Source: a virus (taxonomy: Duplodnaviria; Heunggongvirae; Uroviricota; Caudoviricetes). Taken from it: a stretch of DNA of 15,352 nt. Below the pieces are notes generated by a model. The model was not told the DNA's origin. It saw only the letters and a program-made list of their open reading frames with translations, and searched no databases. The position numbers and the translations under genes are program-made. Shown here piece after piece: positions 1-7,827 of this stretch (position 1 is the first letter of the stretch; the number at the start of each line of letters is the position of its first letter). The DNA is taken from positions 1-15,352 of the IMG/VR virus record IMGVR_UViG_2558860274_000010; one strand, given 5' to 3'.

Positions 1-485
1 TTTGTTTTACCTCATTACAGATTTAAGGGTGAACAAATCCCTGCCATTGCTGGCATATAAGAATGAAACCGGATATTTATTACGGAACTGTTTTAAAGAC
101 CTGCCGGGATTTCGTTATTATCCTGGTGAATAACTTTATCGACCGGGTAACAGTTACCGGGAATTTTCTGTTCGGTTGCTGCAGTCACACACTCCTGCAT
201 TGTCCTGTGAACACTGACTGCAATATCAACTGGCTCTCCGGAAACAAGAAAAACTGTCAGAACAAGTGCAAATGCTGTATTCATTGCCAGCATCCTTTTT
301 GTATCGGACGTAAACGGGCCAGCATTGAAAGAATGCATATTTTATTTAATAACTCCCGTTCGTGTTTTCTCTTGTTAATGGCATCTTCAGTAAATACAGG
401 GTTACTGATAGTGACACCAATTTCAAAACAACCTTCAGACGTATTAACGTTTGGTAATAACGTTTCCATTATCGCGTCCTCAACA

Positions 486-794
486 ATGAATTTTGTGATG
501 CGATGCCTGGTGCCTCCAGGTGACGTTAACCAGTTAACAATTAACGCCGGATACAGAGAATGCATGACGTGTGGTAATCAGGCAGATGATCCGCATCACA
601 TCATTGGTCATGGACTGGGAGGGATGGGAACAAAGGCTGATGATTTGTTTGTTATTCCGCTGTGCCGTAAATGCCATAGCGAACTACACGCCGGGGTAAA
701 AGATTTTGAAGAAAAACACGGCAGCCAGCTGTTGTTGCTGATTCGTTTTTTAATGCACGCGAGAAATTCGGGTGTCCTGAAGTGGAAAGCATGA
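486..794 (+). CDS. nin-region Cys/His-rich zinc-binding protein (DUF1364/YbcO-like); start uncertain
   Basis: The C-terminal ~100 aa of the 63..794 frame carry a CxxC...HH...CxxCH pattern (CMTCGNQADDPHHIIGHG...CRKCHSELHAG) like small proteins found just upstream of rusA in lambdoid prophages. The stop codon abuts the rusA ATG (TGA 792-794, ATG 795). The frame is open back to 63, but the upstream part is Cys/Asn-rich and unprotein-like; ATG 486 or 495 are plausible starts. Confidence 0.45.
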   Translation: MNFVMRCLVPPGDVNQLTINAGYRECMTCGNQADDPHHIIGHGLGGMGTKADDLFVIPLCRKCHSELHAGVKDFEEKHGSQLLLLIRFLMHARNSGVLKWKA

Positions 795-1160
795 ATGACT
801 GAACGCATAGAATTTGTTTTGCCTTACCCGCCAACGGTGAACACTTACTGGCGACGTCGTGGCAGCACATATTTTGTATCAAAAGCCGGTGAGCGTTATC
901 GCCGTGATGTGGCGCTTATTGTTCGCCAGCAGCGGCTGAAATTAAACCTGTCCGGAAGGCTGGAGATAAAGATTATTGCAGAGCCACCGGATAAACGTCG
1001 TCGTGACCTGGACAATATCCTGAAAGCACCACTGGATGCGCTGACGCATGCCGGACTTCTCATAGACGACGAGCAGTTTGATGAAATCAATATTGTGCGC
1101 GGTCAGCGCGTTCCTGGGGGACGGCTGGGCGTGAAGATTTACAAAATTGAGAGTGAGTGA
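795..1160 (+). CDS. rusA: Holliday junction resolvase RusA
   Basis: 121-aa ORF with clear similarity to E. coli RusA as recalled, including the PDKRRRDLDN region, length ~120 aa and a C-terminal GGRL motif. Translationally coupled to the upstream ORF. Confidence 0.85.
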   Translation: MTERIEFVLPYPPTVNTYWRRRGSTYFVSKAGERYRRDVALIVRQQRLKLNLSGRLEIKIIAEPPDKRRRDLDNILKAPLDALTHAGLLIDDEQFDEINIVRGQRVPGGRLGVKIYKIESE

Positions 1161-1168
1161 TCGTAAAT

Positions 1169-1711
1169 ATGATATACCCGGAAATTACAGGCAAAAGCGG
1201 CGAGCATTTACGTCTAAAAACGCTGGAAGCCGTCTGGATCCAGGGGAAATTACGGATGTGGGGGCGTTGGTCGTATATAGGTGGTGGCAAACCAGGAAAT
1301 ATGTTCAATCAGTTGCTGGCATCCAAAAAACTGACAAAAACCGCAATCAATGAAGCCCTGCGTAGAATCAGGGAGTCAGGGATTGATAAACCAGAGCTGG
1401 AAGCATTCTTGCGAGAGATGATCGCTGGCAGACAGAAGAGCTGGTTGTCTCACTGTACTGATGCAGAGGCGTTACGCATTGATGGGGTGATAAGTAAAGC
1501 GCTTGCACGTTATCCTGGATTGATTGATATCCTGCGGCAAAGGTACGAAGGGCGGGGGATGAGTAAACGCAAAATGGCTGAATTGTTGAATGAGGTGCAC
1601 CCGGAATGGTGTTTTAGTACATGCGAAAAGCGAATTGCTAATTGGTTGGCTGTTGCTGAATATGCGCTATACATCCCTATGCGAGAATCGTTTGCTCAAA
1701 AAATGTCTTGA
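1169..1711 (+). CDS. putative late-gene antiterminator (Q-like)
   Basis: 180-aa ORF (ATG 1169; the track's 1157 start is GTG) placed between rusA and a strong intrinsic terminator, followed by late-region genes. This is the canonical lambdoid Q position; identity rests on synteny, not on a recognised motif. Confidence 0.5.
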   Translation: MIYPEITGKSGEHLRLKTLEAVWIQGKLRMWGRWSYIGGGKPGNMFNQLLASKKLTKTAINEALRRIRESGIDKPELEAFLREMIAGRQKSWLSHCTDAEALRIDGVISKALARYPGLIDILRQRYEGRGMSKRKMAELLNEVHPEWCFSTCEKRIANWLAVAEYALYIPMRESFAQKMS

Positions 1712-1736
1712 TTTTTTACGCATAAACTGTTTCAAT
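1708..1736 (+). promoter_or_regulatory. candidate pR'-like late promoter (TTGATT-N17-TTCAAT)
   Basis: Sigma70-like hexamers directly after the Q-like ORF and about 60-90 nt upstream of the tR'-like hairpin. Assigned by position only. Confidence 0.25.
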
Positions 1737-1795
1737 CCAGCTACGCTTCGCAAAGCTATACCGCGAGGCGAATAGCAGACATGGACACCTGAAAG

Positions 1796-1819
1796 AACCC
1801 GCTTTATGCGGGTTTTTTT
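1796..1819 (+). terminator. intrinsic terminator (tR'-like)
   Basis: Perfect 7-bp stem AACCCGC/GCGGGTT with loop TTTAT, followed by a T-run (TTTTTTT). Sits about 85 nt after the Q-like stop. Confidence 0.7.
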
Positions 1820-1942
1820 ATGTCTGAAAAACGGCACAGAACATTAAACGCGCTGGTAGTTGTGAATACTGGTCTTTCAGCTTGCTGGCTTTTTCGACAA
1901 GAGGTATTGGTATGTCACGTTAACCGGAAAAGGGAAAAAAGC

Positions 1943-2140
1943 ATGCTAAAACAGCAGGATATGACCGAAACCGCCAGAGTGGTGTTTAATGAATTAAGCG
2001 TCACCGAACCGGCGACCGTCGGGGAAATTGCGCAGAATACTTACCTTTCACGCGAACGCTGCCAGTTAATACTGACTCAGCTTGTTATGGCGGGTCTGGC
2101 AGATTATCAGTTCGGTTGTTACAGACGCCTTCCGCAGTGA
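1943..2140 (+). CDS. small HTH-like protein (65 aa), function unknown
   Basis: ATG 1943 preceded by AAGGGA at spacing ~8. The segment ATVGEIAQNTYLSRERCQLILTQLVMAGLA resembles a helix-turn-helix. The track's 1820 start overlaps the terminator and is unlikely. Confidence 0.4.
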   Translation: MLKQQDMTETARVVFNELSVTEPATVGEIAQNTYLSRERCQLILTQLVMAGLADYQFGCYRRLPQ

Positions 2141-2290
2141 AGGCTTTTTAATTTGTGGTAATGGGCGGCTGGTGGGTGTTAGCGGCACCTGCCAGCCATC
2201 TGCTCATGCGTTGGGGTCACAAGCAAACCTCAGGCCCATCTGCTTTGCGCAAAAGCGGTATGAGCCTATCAGAGAAGTGCTTATTGATCT

Positions 2291-3340
2291 ATGATTAATA
2301 CTGTAAAAATATCCAGTTGTGAGTTAATCAACGCTGATTGCCTGGAATTTATCCAGACCTTACCGGAAAACTCTGTCGATCTGATAGTCACAGACCCGCC
2401 ATACTTTAAAGTGAAGCCCGAGGGCTGGGATAACCAGTGGGAGGGCGACGATGATTACCTGAAATGGCTGGACCAGTGTCTGGCGCAGTTCTGGCGGGTA
2501 CTGAAGCCTGCCGGAAGTCTTTACCTGTTCTGTGGTCATCGCCTGGCATCTGACACCGAAATCATGATGCGTGAGCGCTTTAATGTGCTGAACCACATTA
2601 TCTGGGCGAAGCCGTCCGGACGCTGGAACGGGTGCAATAAGGAAAGTCTGCGGGCGTATTTTCCGGCAACAGAGCGCATTCTGTTTGCAGAACATTATCA
2701 GGGACCGTATCGCCCGAAAGATGATGGCTATGTGGCACAGGGGCGCGAGCTAAAACAGCACGTCATGGCCCCGCTGATTTCTTACTTTCGTGATGCGCGT
2801 AAATCACTGGGAATAACGTCAAAACAGATAGCGGAAGCCACCGGAAAGAAAAACATGGCTTCGCACTGGTTTGGTACCAGTCAGTGGCAGTTACCGAACG
2901 AGGGTAATTACAACAAATTGCAGGCGTTGTTTGCGCGTGTTGCGGCAGAAAAACATCAGCGCGGGGAACTGGAAAAGCCACACCACCAGCTGGTCAGCAC
3001 ATACAGTGAGCTGAACCGGCAGTATACGGAACTGCTGAGTGAATATAAAAATTTGCGGCGGTATTTCGGTGTGACGGCGCAGGTTCCGTACACCGATGTC
3101 TGGACGCATAAACCGGTGCAGTACTATCCAGGGAAACATCCGTGCGAAAAACCGGCAGAAATGCTGCAGCAGATAATCAACGCGAGCAGTCGTCCGGGAG
3201 ACCTGGTTGCAGATTTTTTTATGGGTTCAGGTTCAACGGTAAAAGCGGCGATGGCACTGGGGCGTTGTGCGATTGGTGTTGAGCTGGAGACAGGACGTTT
3301 TGAACAGACAGTCAGGGAAGTTCAGGATTTAATCGTTTGA
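2291..3340 (+). CDS. DNA methyltransferase (N6-adenine or N4-cytosine, beta-class), apparently orphan
   Basis: 349-aa ORF with catalytic DPPY motif near the N-terminus (IVTDPPYF) and an FxGxG AdoMet-binding motif near the C-terminus (FFMGSGST). No restriction endonuclease partner is evident nearby. Confidence 0.8.
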   Translation: MINTVKISSCELINADCLEFIQTLPENSVDLIVTDPPYFKVKPEGWDNQWEGDDDYLKWLDQCLAQFWRVLKPAGSLYLFCGHRLASDTEIMMRERFNVLNHIIWAKPSGRWNGCNKESLRAYFPATERILFAEHYQGPYRPKDDGYVAQGRELKQHVMAPLISYFRDARKSLGITSKQIAEATGKKNMASHWFGTSQWQLPNEGNYNKLQALFARVAAEKHQRGELEKPHHQLVSTYSELNRQYTELLSEYKNLRRYFGVTAQVPYTDVWTHKPVQYYPGKHPCEKPAEMLQQIINASSRPGDLVADFFMGSGSTVKAAMALGRCAIGVELETGRFEQTVREVQDLIV

Positions 3341-3389
3341 AACGGATGGGATTGCAGAATTAATTACGCACCATTATTATTCTGCTACC

Positions 3390-3465
3390 GGCCCTTTAGC
3401 TCAGTGGTGAGAGCGAGCGACTCATAATCGCCAGGTCGCTGGTTCAAATCCAGCAAGGGCCACCA
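3390..3465 (+). tRNA. ileZ: tRNA with anticodon CAT (Ile2/lysidine type or Met; ileZ-like)
   Basis: Manual cloverleaf: acceptor GGCCCTT/AAGGGCC, D-arm GCTC/GAGC, anticodon loop CTCATAA, T-arm GCTGG-TTCAAAT-CCAGC, encoded CCA at 3463-3465. Confidence 0.85.
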
Positions 3466-3472
3466 TCACATA

Positions 3473-3549
3473 CCGCCATTAGCTCATCGGCAGAGAGCGT
3501 CAGCTTTCGAAACTGGCTGTGTGGGGCCCGGGTCCCCGATGGCAATCCA
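3473..3549 (+). tRNA. argN: atypical tRNA-Arg-like, anticodon TCG (argN-like)
   Basis: Manual fold: D-arm GCTC/GAGC, anticodon loop TTTCGAA with U33 and A37, encoded CCA at 3547-3549. Irregularities: two C-A mismatches at the acceptor end, one mismatch closing the anticodon stem, and a non-canonical T-loop CCCGGGT. Confidence 0.5.
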
Positions 3550-3562
3550 TTATCTGCATTAT

Positions 3563-3639
3563 GCGTTGTTAGCTCAGCCGGACAGAGCAATTGCCTTCTA
3601 AGCAATCGGTCACTGGTTCGAATCCAGTACAACGCGCCA
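3563..3639 (+). tRNA. argO: tRNA-Arg, anticodon TCT (argO-like)
   Basis: Manual cloverleaf: perfect acceptor GCGTTGT/ACAACGC, anticodon stem ATTGC/GCAAT with loop CTTCTAA, T-arm with TTCGAAT loop, encoded CCA at 3637-3639. Confidence 0.85.
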
Positions 3640-3776
3640 TATTCATTCTTCCAGATTTCTTCCGGCAGAGCCTTATACTGGAATATACCTGGCTCAGGAT
3701 ATTGTTGAAAATATTATATGTTTGTCAAAAATAAAAGTTCTGTTAAGTATTGATTGAGTGTTTGTTATACGGTCTA

Positions 3777-4103
3777 ATGGTTTTTTCAGTATTAAATATT
3801 TATCATTCATATGGTGTGGGTAGAGTGAATATTGATGAGGCGTCGGGGTGTTTCATCCTTAGGCAGCGTATTGATATAGTCAATGCAGCACGAGCAAAGG
3901 CCTTCAGCCGTTTGACAGTTTTGTTCTGTACTCCTGATCGTCTTTTGGGAAGAGACGTTATTATTCTGAATAGTGATGCTATACAGAGGGTTTGCGATGA
4001 GTTCATGGTTGCTAATTCAGAATTATTTGCTCTTGTTCAGGAGTACAACAGAATAGCCAGGACCTGTGGTATGGATGAACTTCGGATTACTCATCTGGGG
4101 TAG
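3777..4103 (+). CDS. hypothetical protein (108 aa from first ATG), unknown function
   Basis: Open frame 3750..4103 (TTG at 3750, first ATG at 3777) in AT-rich DNA right after the tRNA cluster. A TTGTCA-N17-TAAGTAT promoter-like element lies at 3721-3749. No convincing Shine-Dalgarno and no recognisable family. Confidence 0.3.
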   Translation: MVFSVLNIYHSYGVGRVNIDEASGCFILRQRIDIVNAARAKAFSRLTVLFCTPDRLLGRDVIILNSDAIQRVCDEFMVANSELFALVQEYNRIARTCGMDELRITHLG

Positions 4104-4494
4104 ATACATATCTGGATTATCACCTGTTACGGTAAAAAGTGATTGCTTACTGTTTTTGTGAATGGCATTGCAGCAGCCGGATAATGTCAGTGCTGGCTGA
4201 CGGTGTGCTGGTGGCGGGTGTGGTGGTTGTTGCTTTCCCGTTGCTGAAAAAGAAAACGCCAGACTGTTAGCCGGGTATCAGTTAGCGGGAGAAATTTTTA
4301 AATACTTCACAATTCAGGCGGTTGACTGTTGTCTGGTTTGCGGGGAGTTTGTTAAAAGAAACTGGCATGGTGAATCCCCCTGTGCGGTGGGGCAATCAGC
4401 GAGTAGGTATATGGGATAATCGCGGATTCAGGTGCTGGTACTGAATTCACCGGGAGGCACCCGGCACCATGCAATGGCACATAGCGCCACTCTC

Positions 4495-4524
4495 CAGCCC
4501 CTCTCCGGAGGGGCTGTTTATATT
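4495..4524 (+). terminator. intrinsic terminator-like hairpin
   Basis: 9-bp stem CAGCCCCTC/GAGGGGCTG with loop TCCG, followed by a T-rich tract (TTTATATTGATTTT) on the + strand. Lies immediately 3' of the stop of the minus-strand ORF 4518..4886. Confidence 0.4.
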
Positions 4525-4886
4525 GATTTTGTCAGATGTGAGTAAACTCCTGATGGACTTTGTTGTTTTAGTCCATAAGGACATATTTGCAGAGTGCAAC
4601 GGTTATTAAAGCATTCATTCAATACGTTATCTGTATTTGTAGGGCATTCCTGGCTGTTTTTGATTAAATTCCAGAATGTTTTATTGAATGGTACTACGTT
4701 GTAAATGGTTACAGGTAGCACTTTGTTATTGAGCATGATGCCTGTGTGAGTCAGTGTAAATATACTTTCAGGAGGTAAGAAAGCATCCGATTGATACCAG
4801 ATTATTAATTTTATTTTACTCCATATGACTGAAAAAGATATTCCGCATGATGGCTGGATAACTGTATCAATCACAATCCACTTCAT
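4518..4886 (-). CDS. hypothetical protein (122 aa), AT-rich cargo gene
   Basis: Minus-strand ORF with a good ribosome-binding site (AAGGAAAGTAA then ATG). Low GC compared with the flanks; no recognisable family or signal peptide. Confidence 0.4.
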
Positions 4887-5186
4887 TTACTTTCCTTGTT
4901 TATGCCTTGCTGGTGATGTTCTGAAAAGTATAAATGATATTTTTGAATTAAACCATAGAGCAGAATTATTTTTCTGATGTTGTTTATTGTTTATTTAAAT
5001 ACAGGGTGGTTTATATCTCGTCTTGTAGTTTATCCATGCATATCTGCTTGATAATCAGGTTTTTATTTAAGGTATGGTTTTGTGTTTTTTCTGTATAGAC
5101 TGGCCCCCTGAATCTCCAGACAACCAATATCACTTAAATAAGTGATAGTCTTAATACTAGTTTTTAGACTAGTCATTGGAGAACAG

Positions 5187-5552
5187 ATGATTGATGTCTT
5201 AGGGCCGGAGAAACGCAGACGGCGTACCACACAGGAAAAGATCGCAATTATTCAGCAGAGCTTTGAACCGGGGATGACGGTCTCCCTCGTTGCCCGGCAA
5301 CATGGTGTAGCAGCCAGCCAGTTATTTCTCTGGCGTAAGCAATACCAGGAAGGAAGTCTTACTGCTGTCGCCGCCGGAGAACAGGTTGTTCCTGCCTCTG
5401 AACTTGCTGCCGCCATGAAGCAGATTAAAGAACTCCAGCGCCTGCTCGGCAAGAAAACGATGGAAAATGAACTCCTCAAAGAAGCCGTTGAATATGGACG
5501 GGCAAAAAAGTGGATAGCGCACGCGCCCTTATTGCCCGGGGATGGGGAGTAA
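5187..5552 (+). CDS. insC: IS2 transposase OrfA (InsC)
   Basis: 121 aa beginning [21 protein letters not shown]..., preceded by GGAGAACAG. Matches IS2 InsC as recalled. Confidence 0.85.
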
Positions 5553-5722
5553 GCTTAGTCAGCCGTTGTCTCCGGGTGTCGCGTGCGCAGTTGCACGTCA
5601 TTCTCAGACGAACCGATGACTGGATGGATGGCCGCCGCAGTCGTCACACTGATGATACGGATGTGCTTCTCCGTATACACCATGTTATCGGAGAGCTGCC
5701 CACGTATGGTTATCGTCGGGTA
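5510..5722 (+). pseudogene. insD: IS2 orfB (insD) 5' fragment, truncated after codon 71
   Basis: [30 protein letters not shown]...PTYGYRRV matches the InsD N-terminus. The expected continuation is replaced from 5723 by unrelated sequence in the same frame. Confidence 0.7.
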
Positions 5723-6919
5723 CAGAAGAACCCGAAAAATGTGTTGCTGGCGGTGTGCTGGATGCAGGGAGAGTTTGACATGAGCGCCGCCACCCACGCA
5801 CAGCAACCTGCGCTGTTTACAGCCATGCTGACACAGTTTCGTGCTGACCTCTCCGTGTTTAACGCGCAGTGCCATGGTGGCAGTGCTGCAGATGTGCCGT
5901 GGATTTGTGGTGACACGACGTATTACTGGAAAAATACATACGCTACCCAGTACGACACCGTGTACGGCGGGTATAAAAACAGGGAGAGTGAGGGCGTTTA
6001 TTTTGTGCCCTTCATGACAGACGGTAACGGCGTCAATACCGCCACTAACGCGCCGGCAGAAGATCCGGATATTCCGGCATCAGGATATTACGGTGCGGCA
6101 TCGAGAACGAATGGAAACCAGGTATCATCAAACCGCCCGACACATTTCAGTTCATGGGCGCGCAGGAGCATTATTCCGGATCGTCTGGCAACCGCTATTC
6201 TGAACGCAGCCGGGCGCACCTCAGCCTTCATCAGTGGTAAGGCACCGGAAATCAAACCCTCGCCCGGCGGCAACACGCCATCGGGTCCGTCTGCAGATAC
6301 GTCCGTTCGCACAATCTCCCTGCTGCCGGCAGCCGGAGAGGCTGCTGCGCAGGGCTGGAGCATTAAGGATGGCGGAATTCAGTTGTCAGATGGTGTATTT
6401 AAGATCACCAAGCAGAGCAATAAAACCTGGTCCCTGACGCATCCGGTGGATGACGCAATTACCCTGCTGACACAGGGCGGCAGACTGACCTGTAAGTTCC
6501 GCCTGTCAGGCGCACTGACCAACAATCAGTTCGGGCTGGGGATTTATCTGTATACGGATGCTCCCGTTCCTGATGGTGTGGCGATGACGGGTACCGGTAA
6601 TCCGTTCCTGATGTCGTACTTCACTCAGACCACTGACGGCAGAGTGAATCTGATGCATCACAGGAAAGCCGGAAACACGAAGCTGGGGGAGTTCGGCGAT
6701 TACGGTAACGACTGGCAGACGCTGGAGCTGGTGTTCACCGCCGGCAGTGCCACGGTTACTCCGAAACTGAATGGAGTGGCTGGCCCGGCATTCCAGGTTA
6801 TAAAAGACGGTCTGACACTGGGACTGAATGCGCTGACGCTGACGGATGTTACAAAAAATGCAGCGTATGGCGTTGAGATAGAAAGTCTGGTGCTGGAGAT
6901 AAATGCACCGGCAGCATAA
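5723..6919 (+). pseudogene. 3' portion of a prophage nanS-p/YjhS-family sialate O-acetylesterase gene, 5'-truncated and fused in frame to the IS2 orfB stub
   Basis: Translation from 5723 ([19 protein letters not shown]...[12 protein letters not shown]...YGGYKN...[20 protein letters not shown]...[14 protein letters not shown]) parallels the C-terminal half of E. coli NanS/YjhS as recalled, followed by a ~250-aa extension. The N-terminal part of the gene is absent. The position between the tRNAs and the holin matches where Stx phages carry nanS-p. Confidence 0.6.
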
Positions 6920-7285
6920 TAAAAAAGAGCCAGCGACTGACCTGAAAGAAGACGCTGGCTAAAAGGCCTTATATGTTTGTAGAGACTTATTTTTCACAGA
7001 CAGCAATGATGCCTGTCAATATATTATCAATATGCGGATTGTTTCAGTTACAGATGCTTTATTAAGGAAAAAAACAGCCAGCACTGACTTTCGGTGGAGA
7101 GGTGCTGGCTCAGAAGGATAGTTGGATTTCACATGATACTTATGCCTGGCGGTATATTTTCTGACAGACAGTGACGGGTGTTGTCAAGATATTGTGTCAT
7201 TTATAACCTGAATCAGGGGAGGCCGGAATGTTATCTGGCATTTTTAGCAGAGCCTGAATGCCATAATCACGGCTCCCGGAGTTGG

Positions 7286-7321
7286 CCGTCAGTGGGTGAC
7301 ACTGGCGGTTTTTTTGTTTTT
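7286..7321 (+). terminator. intrinsic terminator upstream of the holin
   Basis: 9-bp stem CCGTCAGTG/CACTGGCGG (one G-U pair) with loop GGTGA, followed by TTTTTTTGTTTTT. Lies 45 nt upstream of the holin start. Confidence 0.5.
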
Positions 7322-7365
7322 CTTTACTTTCATTTTCTGTCGGCGGTGACGGAGACATACATCAG

Positions 7366-7572
7366 ATGGAAAAAATCACAACGGGTGTGTCATACACCAC
7401 GTCAGCGGTGGGGACGGGATACTGGTTACTGCAGCTGCTGGACAAAGTCTCTCCGTCCCAGTGGGTGGCAATCGGTGTGCTGGGGAGTCTGCTGTTTGGC
7501 CTGCTGACGTATCTGACTAACCTTTATTTCAAGATTAAAGAAGATAAGCGTAAGGTGGCGCGGGGAGAGTAG
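7366..7572 (+). CDS. class II holin, phage-21 S21-type pinholin
   Basis: 68-aa ORF closely resembling the phage 21 pinholin as recalled (two TMDs, GYW and [14 protein letters not shown] motifs, C-terminal [13 protein letters not shown]). GGAGA ribosome-binding site upstream. Confidence 0.85.
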
Positions 7573-7827
7573 TCGATGAATAAACAATACGAACTGGTTG
7601 TAAAATGAATATTTCTAACTGAAAAAACGTTCCATGAGGTAAGAAAAGGTCACAGGCAATCAATAACAGGACGTGATGAAAGACCCTTGCATTTGTGCGC
7701 TTTCTCTTTAGATAGCAGCAGATACTGAAAATCTGAGTTGTCGGGGAGTCAGGGATACAGCTGTGCAAGAGTTGGTCATTGTGATTCCATTGAAATCCTG
7801 TATGCCATGAAGGGCAGGATTTTATGG

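Follow-up and report, generated by a model that had tools for sequence, protein, structure and literature searches.

The 1.4 kb of DNA at positions 3640-5095 of the virus record IMGVR_UViG_2558860274_000010 is very probably a mosaic, in which three independent modules, all of them already catalogued, sit between Q and the lysis genes of a degraded lambdoid prophage from Escherichia albertii. We analysed a stretch of 15,352 nucleotides (nt) of this IMG/VR record (positions 1 to 15,352; the window), whose late region had been likened in an earlier note to the locus where Shiga toxin (Stx) phages carry stxAB. That note saw a single stx-equivalent slot, filled with two open reading frames (ORFs) of no recognisable family that would be expressed with the late genes. 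Both ORFs are indeed present (3777-4103 on the plus strand and 4518-4886 on the minus strand), but each belongs to a family, and the slot is not single: two inserts, here called modules A and B, flank a conserved gene for a small RNA (sRNA) of the STnc100 family, and only module A lies at the position of stx2AB.

This architecture becomes apparent when the window is set beside its relatives (Table 1). A prophage of E. coli O55:H7 RM12579, and likewise that of OkiPb01684, has RusA, the DUF1133 Q-like gene, a 65-aa ORF, the DNA methylase, tRNAs, STnc100, nanS-p and holin in common with the window, with 98.5% identity over the shared parts, but lacks both modules. BLAST homology to prophages of this type ends at 3652 and restarts at 4295, with 23 nt in between in the empty-slot relative. 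Because such empty relatives run from the tRNAs through 23 nt to the STnc100 block and then nanS-p, the 1.4 kb represents two separate inserts around a conserved backbone element. The Stx2a phage Stx2_EH2201 (LC567829.1) has the same order, namely Q, 65-aa ORF, DNA methylase, tRNAs, slot, STnc100, a minus-strand gene of the iraM family, nanS-p (yjhS) and holin, and in the interval matching module A it carries stx2A-stx2B where the window has ORF92 and a DUF3927 gene. It further differs from the window by its three tRNAs, a Q of a different 126-aa type, an intact nanS-p and a STnc100-iraM segment that is only ~70% identical, the IraM-like protein being a different 107-aa allele. Neither a Pfam scan nor the locus comparison revealed stxA-stxB between the tRNAs and STnc100/nanS-p in the window, which makes the locus a non-Stx relative rather than a Stx phage.

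The same modules are found together elsewhere. Positions 3340-5096 recur at 99.8% identity in many E. coli, and with a coverage of ≥80% module A was counted in 1183 (22%) and module B in 1431 (26%) of 5426 complete genomes of this species. The phage mEp460, which infects K-12, has module A too, at 97-99% identity. The potB prophage of uropathogenic E. coli CFT073 is 97.8% nucleotide-identical to the window over 3351-5096 and keeps the order of tRNA cluster, ORF92 (unannotated there), DUF3927, STnc100 and iraL on the minus strand. Its surroundings are different: upstream it has a 273-aa antiterminator of another kind, IS200C and no methylase, its three tRNAs are all intact as against two in the window, and downstream it has a DUF1737 pseudogene where the window has a nanS-p truncated by the insertion sequence (IS) IS2. 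The interval is AT-rich, as the earlier note had said (39.6% GC against 48% in the flanks), though unevenly so, since GC reaches 55% in 4336-4525 and falls to 33% in 4526-5095.

Table 1. Features of the window. Positions count from its first letter; scores are those of the searches named.
Feature	Position	Strand	Basis or remark
dicB	281-469	-	
Truncated DUF968 gene	ends 794	+	nin-region gene
RusA	795-1160	+	
Q-like late antiterminator gene, DUF1133 family	1157-1711	+	Pfam DUF1133, 342 bits
Intrinsic terminator	1793-1820	+	~80 nt 3' of the Q-like gene
65-aa ORF	1943-2140	+	
N6/N4 DNA methyltransferase	2291-3340	+	Pfam N6_N4_Mtase, 2.1e-44
tRNA, anticodon CAT	3390-3465	+	ARAGORN; Rfam tRNA, 72.5 bits; ileZ-like
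Degenerate tRNA-Arg(TCG)-like pseudogene	3473-3546	+	argN position; Rfam tRNA, 22.2 bits (gathering score 29)
tRNA-Arg (TCT), argO-like	3563-3639	+	ARAGORN; Rfam, 70.1 bits
Module A	3653-4294		642-bp insert relative to 'empty' prophages; exact stx2AB position
ORF92, conserved small protein	3825-4103	+	GTG start; 92 aa; phrog_2873
DUF3927 hydrophobic peptide, 43 aa	4139-4270	+	Pfam PF13064, 95.6 bits (cutoff 25)
STnc100-family sRNA gene	4336-4525	+	Rfam RF02076, 130.5 bits (gathering score 47)
STnc100 intrinsic terminator hairpin	4495-4516	+	9-bp stem, 7 GC pairs, T-tract
Module B	4516-5096		carries iraL (-)
iraL, IraM-family RssB anti-adaptor, 122-aa variant	4518-4886	-	NCBIfam NF007393
iraL 5' untranslated region and promoter region	4887-4960	-	equivalent of transcription start site, 4919; TATACT -10, ~4927-4932
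IS2 left-end fragment	5097-~5720	+	InsC orfA 5142-5552 and first 72 transposase codons
nanS-p 3' remnant (3' two-thirds)	5721-6919	+	DUF6645 C-terminal region (Pfam DUF6645)
Class II holin, phage 21 S type	7366-7572	+	Pfam Phage_holin_2_1, 1.9e-32; PGAP annotation in a relative
ISEc8 element, IS66 family	8261-10594		between holin and lysozyme
PerC-family regulator	12512-12826	+	Pfam, 3.8e-44
EspF-repeat protein, TccP/EspFU-like	13784-14374	-	well under the EspF equivalog cutoff
EspJ ADP-ribosyltransferase effector, full-length	14699-15352	-	NF033643, 410 bits

Module A carries two plus-strand genes, and the larger of them, ORF92, is by the pattern of its codon changes a real gene under purifying selection. 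The ATG at 3777, from which the longer frame was read, is lineage-specific, and the conserved gene begins at the GTG at 3825: homologues in E. coli ETEC4067 and UC4316 (NZ_CM168047.1) agree with it in their length of 279 nt, in the GTG start and in the stop, with no indels, and in both of them an in-frame stop lies 10 codons or fewer upstream of the GTG. These three lineages stand at 71-76% nucleotide identity; their differences are distributed 19/20/40 over the three codon positions, and the ratio of nonsynonymous to synonymous change (dN/dS) is 0.27 in all three pairs. The protein matches phrog_2873 over residues 1-92 (5.7e-57) but nothing in Pfam, NCBIfam or PADLOC, and none of the libraries searched assigns it a function. 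A profile search of 1.84 billion representative proteins returned only 20 relatives. More distant homologues have 91-95 aa, and a remote 95-aa member is likewise preceded by a tRNA and a Q-like gene of the DUF1133 type. The family is narrowly distributed, in every case between the Q and lysis genes of enterobacterial lambdoid prophages. The AlphaFold (AF2) model (predicted local distance difference test, pLDDT, 86.9) consists of a helix, a beta-hairpin and a second helix and has no significant structural match, its neighbours being generic coiled-coil hairpins only. The protein looks cytoplasmic, without a signal peptide or an enzyme-like fold. With low confidence, we see in it a small protein-binding modulator. 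It is improbable that ORF92 is an undescribed host-modulating moron, for example a small protein-binding inhibitor acting in late phage development, which together with STnc100 and iraL might make up a toolkit for rewiring RpoS.

The other gene of module A encodes the DUF3927 peptide, which also matches phrog_1470 (7.8e-13; 'TciB-like' in PHROGs) and is annotated in identical loci by the Prokaryotic Genome Annotation Pipeline (PGAP). Both genes point the same way and lie downstream of Q and the putative pR'-tR' unit, and would thus be transcribed by Q-modified RNA polymerase in lytic growth. We infer that in an intact phage module A would be co-transcribed late, as stx is. A separate promoter for its genes may lie in the AT-rich leader (3640-3824). 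These two genes alone replace stx2AB and could ride the late transcript.

Between the two inserts lies STnc100, a backbone element that is present with or without cargo: it is found at the equivalent place in the empty-slot prophage, Stx2_EH2201, CFT073 and mEp460. In the window the match to the Rfam model is full-length (model positions 1-206), and a conserved 5' flank begins at ~4295. The earlier note had described an untranslated stretch ending in a hairpin. The hairpin and its T-tract are real, and belong both to the Rfam STnc100 structure and to the minimum-free-energy fold; the stretch itself contains the DUF3927 ORF and STnc100. In Stx2_EH2201, STnc100 (Rfam 149.5 bits) starts 75 nt after stx2B, and a STnc100 located 75 nt downstream of stx2 has been reported (PMC12370729). 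Eleven copies are expressed in EDL933 according to RNA sequencing, and one of them was verified by Northern blot (PMC5331693). STnc100 is moreover related to the Hfq-bound PasD sRNAs, which adjoin esterase genes (Zhu, Shabalina & Storz 2026 preprint, 10.64898/2026.05.13.724894). With the STnc100/PasD family (RF02076), the window copy shares the full-length model match, the terminal hairpin and the location beside sialate esterase and holin genes of lambdoid prophages; unlike the family as described, it is convergent with iraL. STnc100 would be a structured sRNA endowed with its own terminator. UC4316 has five STnc100 copies in one late region (1667-1879 and 3639-4618), four of them arranged head to tail between the ORF92 homologue (3071-3349) and nanS-p, which suggests that the unit can amplify in tandem. 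In the identical E. coli loci, PGAP places a partial 'hypothetical protein' pseudogene wholly inside the STnc100 gene (4352-4480, minus strand), probably an annotation artefact.

Module B carries iraL. Its product scores 161.6 bits against the IraM-family profile NF007393 (cutoff 121), residues 1-110 covering profile positions 1-113 of 114, and is identical at 111 of 111 residues to WP_000871291.1 of CFT073 (C_RS06710, c1429), that is, to IraL, known from the potB prophage of that strain (Hryckowian et al. 2014, PMC4045071). Records of the exact 122-aa form exist for E. albertii and for a few metagenomes. K-12 IraM (b1160, beside prophage e14 and induced through PhoPQ by Mg starvation) shares the family, with 62% identity over 107 residues. 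The two anti-adaptors nevertheless differ in genomic context, in induction (log-phase sigma-70 expression for IraL, Mg limitation for IraM) and in their contacts with RssB, of which IraL touches the N-terminal domain only and IraM both domains (PMC4045071). By binding this N-terminal domain, IraL blocks RpoS delivery to ClpXP (PMC4045071). The iraL transcript's published 5' end, mapped by rapid amplification of cDNA ends (PMC4045071), agrees with minus-strand positions 4919 to 4888 in 30 of 32 nucleotides. A precomputed Pfam table assigns PF11183 (PmrD, a connector protein binding a response regulator) to IraL; a current Pfam scan at E ≤ 10 returns nothing for IraL, K-12 IraM or the IraM of the Stx2a phage.

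We envision that in the prophage state the 122-aa IraL would sequester RssB, so that RpoS would escape ClpXP and sigma-S would rise in growing lysogens. On the sequence evidence, iraL is most likely a lysogenic-conversion gene with a predicted sigma-70 promoter of its own, and not a late gene. It lies downstream of the STnc100 terminator, in the second slot and antisense to late transcription, and its opposite orientation keeps it out of the late transcript; Q-modified read-through would instead run antisense to it. The late co-expression foreseen in the earlier note thus fails for this ORF. Nor is iraL an alternative to stx, because an IraM-family homologue coexists with stx2AB in Stx2_EH2201. 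Cargo in the place of stxAB is therefore what module A is and what iraL, in its second slot, is not. The earlier note had named known, conserved identities for both ORFs as one outcome that would undo its proposal; half of this was found, IraL being a characterised protein and ORF92 conserved only. The extended iraL ends 2 nt from the STnc100 terminator stem, and the two convergent genes nearly touch.

Several observations weigh against our reading of the interval as a mosaic of known modules in a late region. In the window, dicB directly adjoins the truncated DUF968 gene, the immunity/replication region being absent between them, and two IS events (the IS2 fragment and ISEc8) break the late operon. 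Because of this abutment with a nin-region gene and of the two interruptions, the window is a prophage remnant, in which Q-driven late transcription may no longer occur. Nor is iraL in its CFT073 form: a single-nucleotide change at 4552 (T-to-G; minus-strand TAA to TCA) turns the stop at 4551-4553 into a serine codon and adds 11 residues, the predicted promoter keeps the TATACT -10 but has lost 1 nt from the spacer between -35 and -10, and two changes fall near the Shine-Dalgarno sequence. For STnc100, no canonical promoter could be placed from the upstream sequence. Finally, PGAP skips ORF92 both in the identical E. coli loci and in CFT073. This last point, which concerns two E. coli loci as well as CFT073, would suit the view that non-coding, AT-rich leader or regulatory DNA happens to be open in the frame of ORF 3777/3825-4103, as would the composition of the region (0.38-0.42 GC) and a weak terminator-like hairpin inside the frame (3939-3957). 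The codon-position and dN/dS comparison largely refutes this view: a 279-nt frame with its GTG and stop has been kept in three lineages with a two-fold excess of third-position changes and a dN/dS of 0.27, distant homologues of 91-95 aa exist, PGAP does annotate the ETEC4067 homologue (WP_001017777.1; 'hypothetical protein' in GenBank), and the AF2 model is confident. We consider a chance frame extremely unlikely.

Scarcely better is the prospect of a novel cargo, toxin-like or for virulence, that fills the slot in place of stxAB and is switched on together with the late genes when the prophage is induced. Module A does lie on the late strand at exactly the stx2AB position, and ORF92 has neither an assigned function in the libraries searched nor a significant fold match. 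But the larger ORF encodes a characterised protein, IraL, runs on the other strand and coexists with stx2, and ORF92 is a cytoplasmic-looking helical hairpin without a signal peptide or enzyme-like fold. Moreover, module A is not confined to a pathotype, being 97-99% identical in mEp460 and in ~22% of complete E. coli genomes, and the prophage is degraded. We thus find a novel toxin very unlikely. A different question is whether 4336-4525 serves the late operon mainly to terminate or process its transcript, being a second tR'-like barrier or a fragment derived from a 3' untranslated region, rather than an autonomous trans-acting sRNA. The element is always co-oriented within the late unit, right after stx2B or other cargo, with a strong terminator at its end; no canonical -10/-35 pair precedes the Rfam 5' end, though a block TCACAATTCAG..GTTGAC is conserved there; and its fold is just moderately stabler than shuffled sequences (z = -2.1). 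Against this, copies are abundantly expressed in uninduced EDL933, including the one seen by Northern blot (PMC5331693), the related PasD sRNAs are bound by Hfq and have many partners in RIL-seq, in which interacting RNAs are ligated and sequenced (preprint 10.64898/2026.05.13.724894), and the four tandem copies of UC4316 argue for a self-contained unit. On balance a role mainly in termination or processing seems rather unlikely, and we keep to the mosaic of two inserts around an sRNA gene.

The Stx-type 'toxin slot' is, on this result, one of at least two adjacent cargo sites on either side of a conserved sRNA gene. Non-Stx relatives have stress-regulation cargo there instead of toxins, which provides a context for reading the late regions of prophages. 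IraL, first described in uropathogenic E. coli, extends to E. albertii, and some Stx phages have it alongside stx2. The interval as a whole is already known biology, and its remaining interest lies in the ORF92 family, which RefSeq annotation usually skips.

Around the interval, the window is the Q-to-lysis section of a lambdoid prophage. CP007025.1, a chromosome of 4.70 Mb with proteins labelled Escherichia albertii, contains positions 1-10886 byte for byte. The resemblance to a Stx-phage backbone pointed out in the earlier note stands as far as the order of elements goes, which is that of Stx2_EH2201; there are two intact tRNAs and not three, nanS-p is truncated, and the tRNAs are immediately preceded by a DNA methylase gene, not by Q. 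The Stx-type succession of Q and pR'/tR' is represented by the Q-like gene, the terminator at 1793-1820 and a promoter that is predicted. The Q-like gene also scores 28.3 bits against Pfam Phage_antitermQ (cutoff 26) and matches PHROG phrog_753, 'anti-termination protein Q-like', at 8.4e-78. The RNA of 1740-1830 folds at -40 kcal/mol (z = -6.98), with 0 of 200 shuffles equally stable, and we infer that the terminator is the tR' of a pR'-tR' unit. TTGATT at 1708-1713, where the Q-like gene ends, is a possible -35 of pR'. Together, this motif and the terminator would yield a short terminated leader RNA, comparable in size to StxS, the sRNA that derives from pR' of Stx phages.

The methylase is a backbone gene that also occurs in some Stx2a phages: it lies at the matching position in two near-identical E. 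coli loci, the empty-slot prophage and Stx2_EH2201. In Stx2a phages, 352-aa methylases have been described downstream of Q, in the layout Q, methylase, tRNA, stx, nanS-p and S (PMC10462455). The tRNA cluster that follows resembles the ileZ-argN-argO type, with two tRNAs intact and the middle tRNA-Arg(TCG) decayed; ARAGORN does not call the latter, and its decay is seen in an alignment with intact copies. In identical loci, PGAP names the gene identical to the first one tRNA-Ile.

Downstream, the intact nanS-p and S-R-Rz cassette of a Stx-type layout are replaced by a nanS-p truncated by IS2 and by a holin and lysozyme that ISEc8 splits apart. Homology with uninterrupted loci stops at 5096, and homology with nanS-p loci restarts at 5721. 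The IS2 fragment, recognised by HTH_Tnp_1 in Pfam and by residues 1-72 of the NCBIfam IS2 TnpB, sits 50 nt upstream of the position of the nanS-p start and is followed by a deletion; the remnant aligns from nt 652 of the 616-aa esterase gene of the empty-slot-type prophage. Fragment and remnant are fused in frame into a chimeric 469-aa ORF (5510-6919). Lysozyme and Rz genes lie downstream of ISEc8. Type III secretion cargo is found further on, at the prophage's right end, and comprises the PerC-family regulator, the EspF-repeat protein and the EspJ effector.

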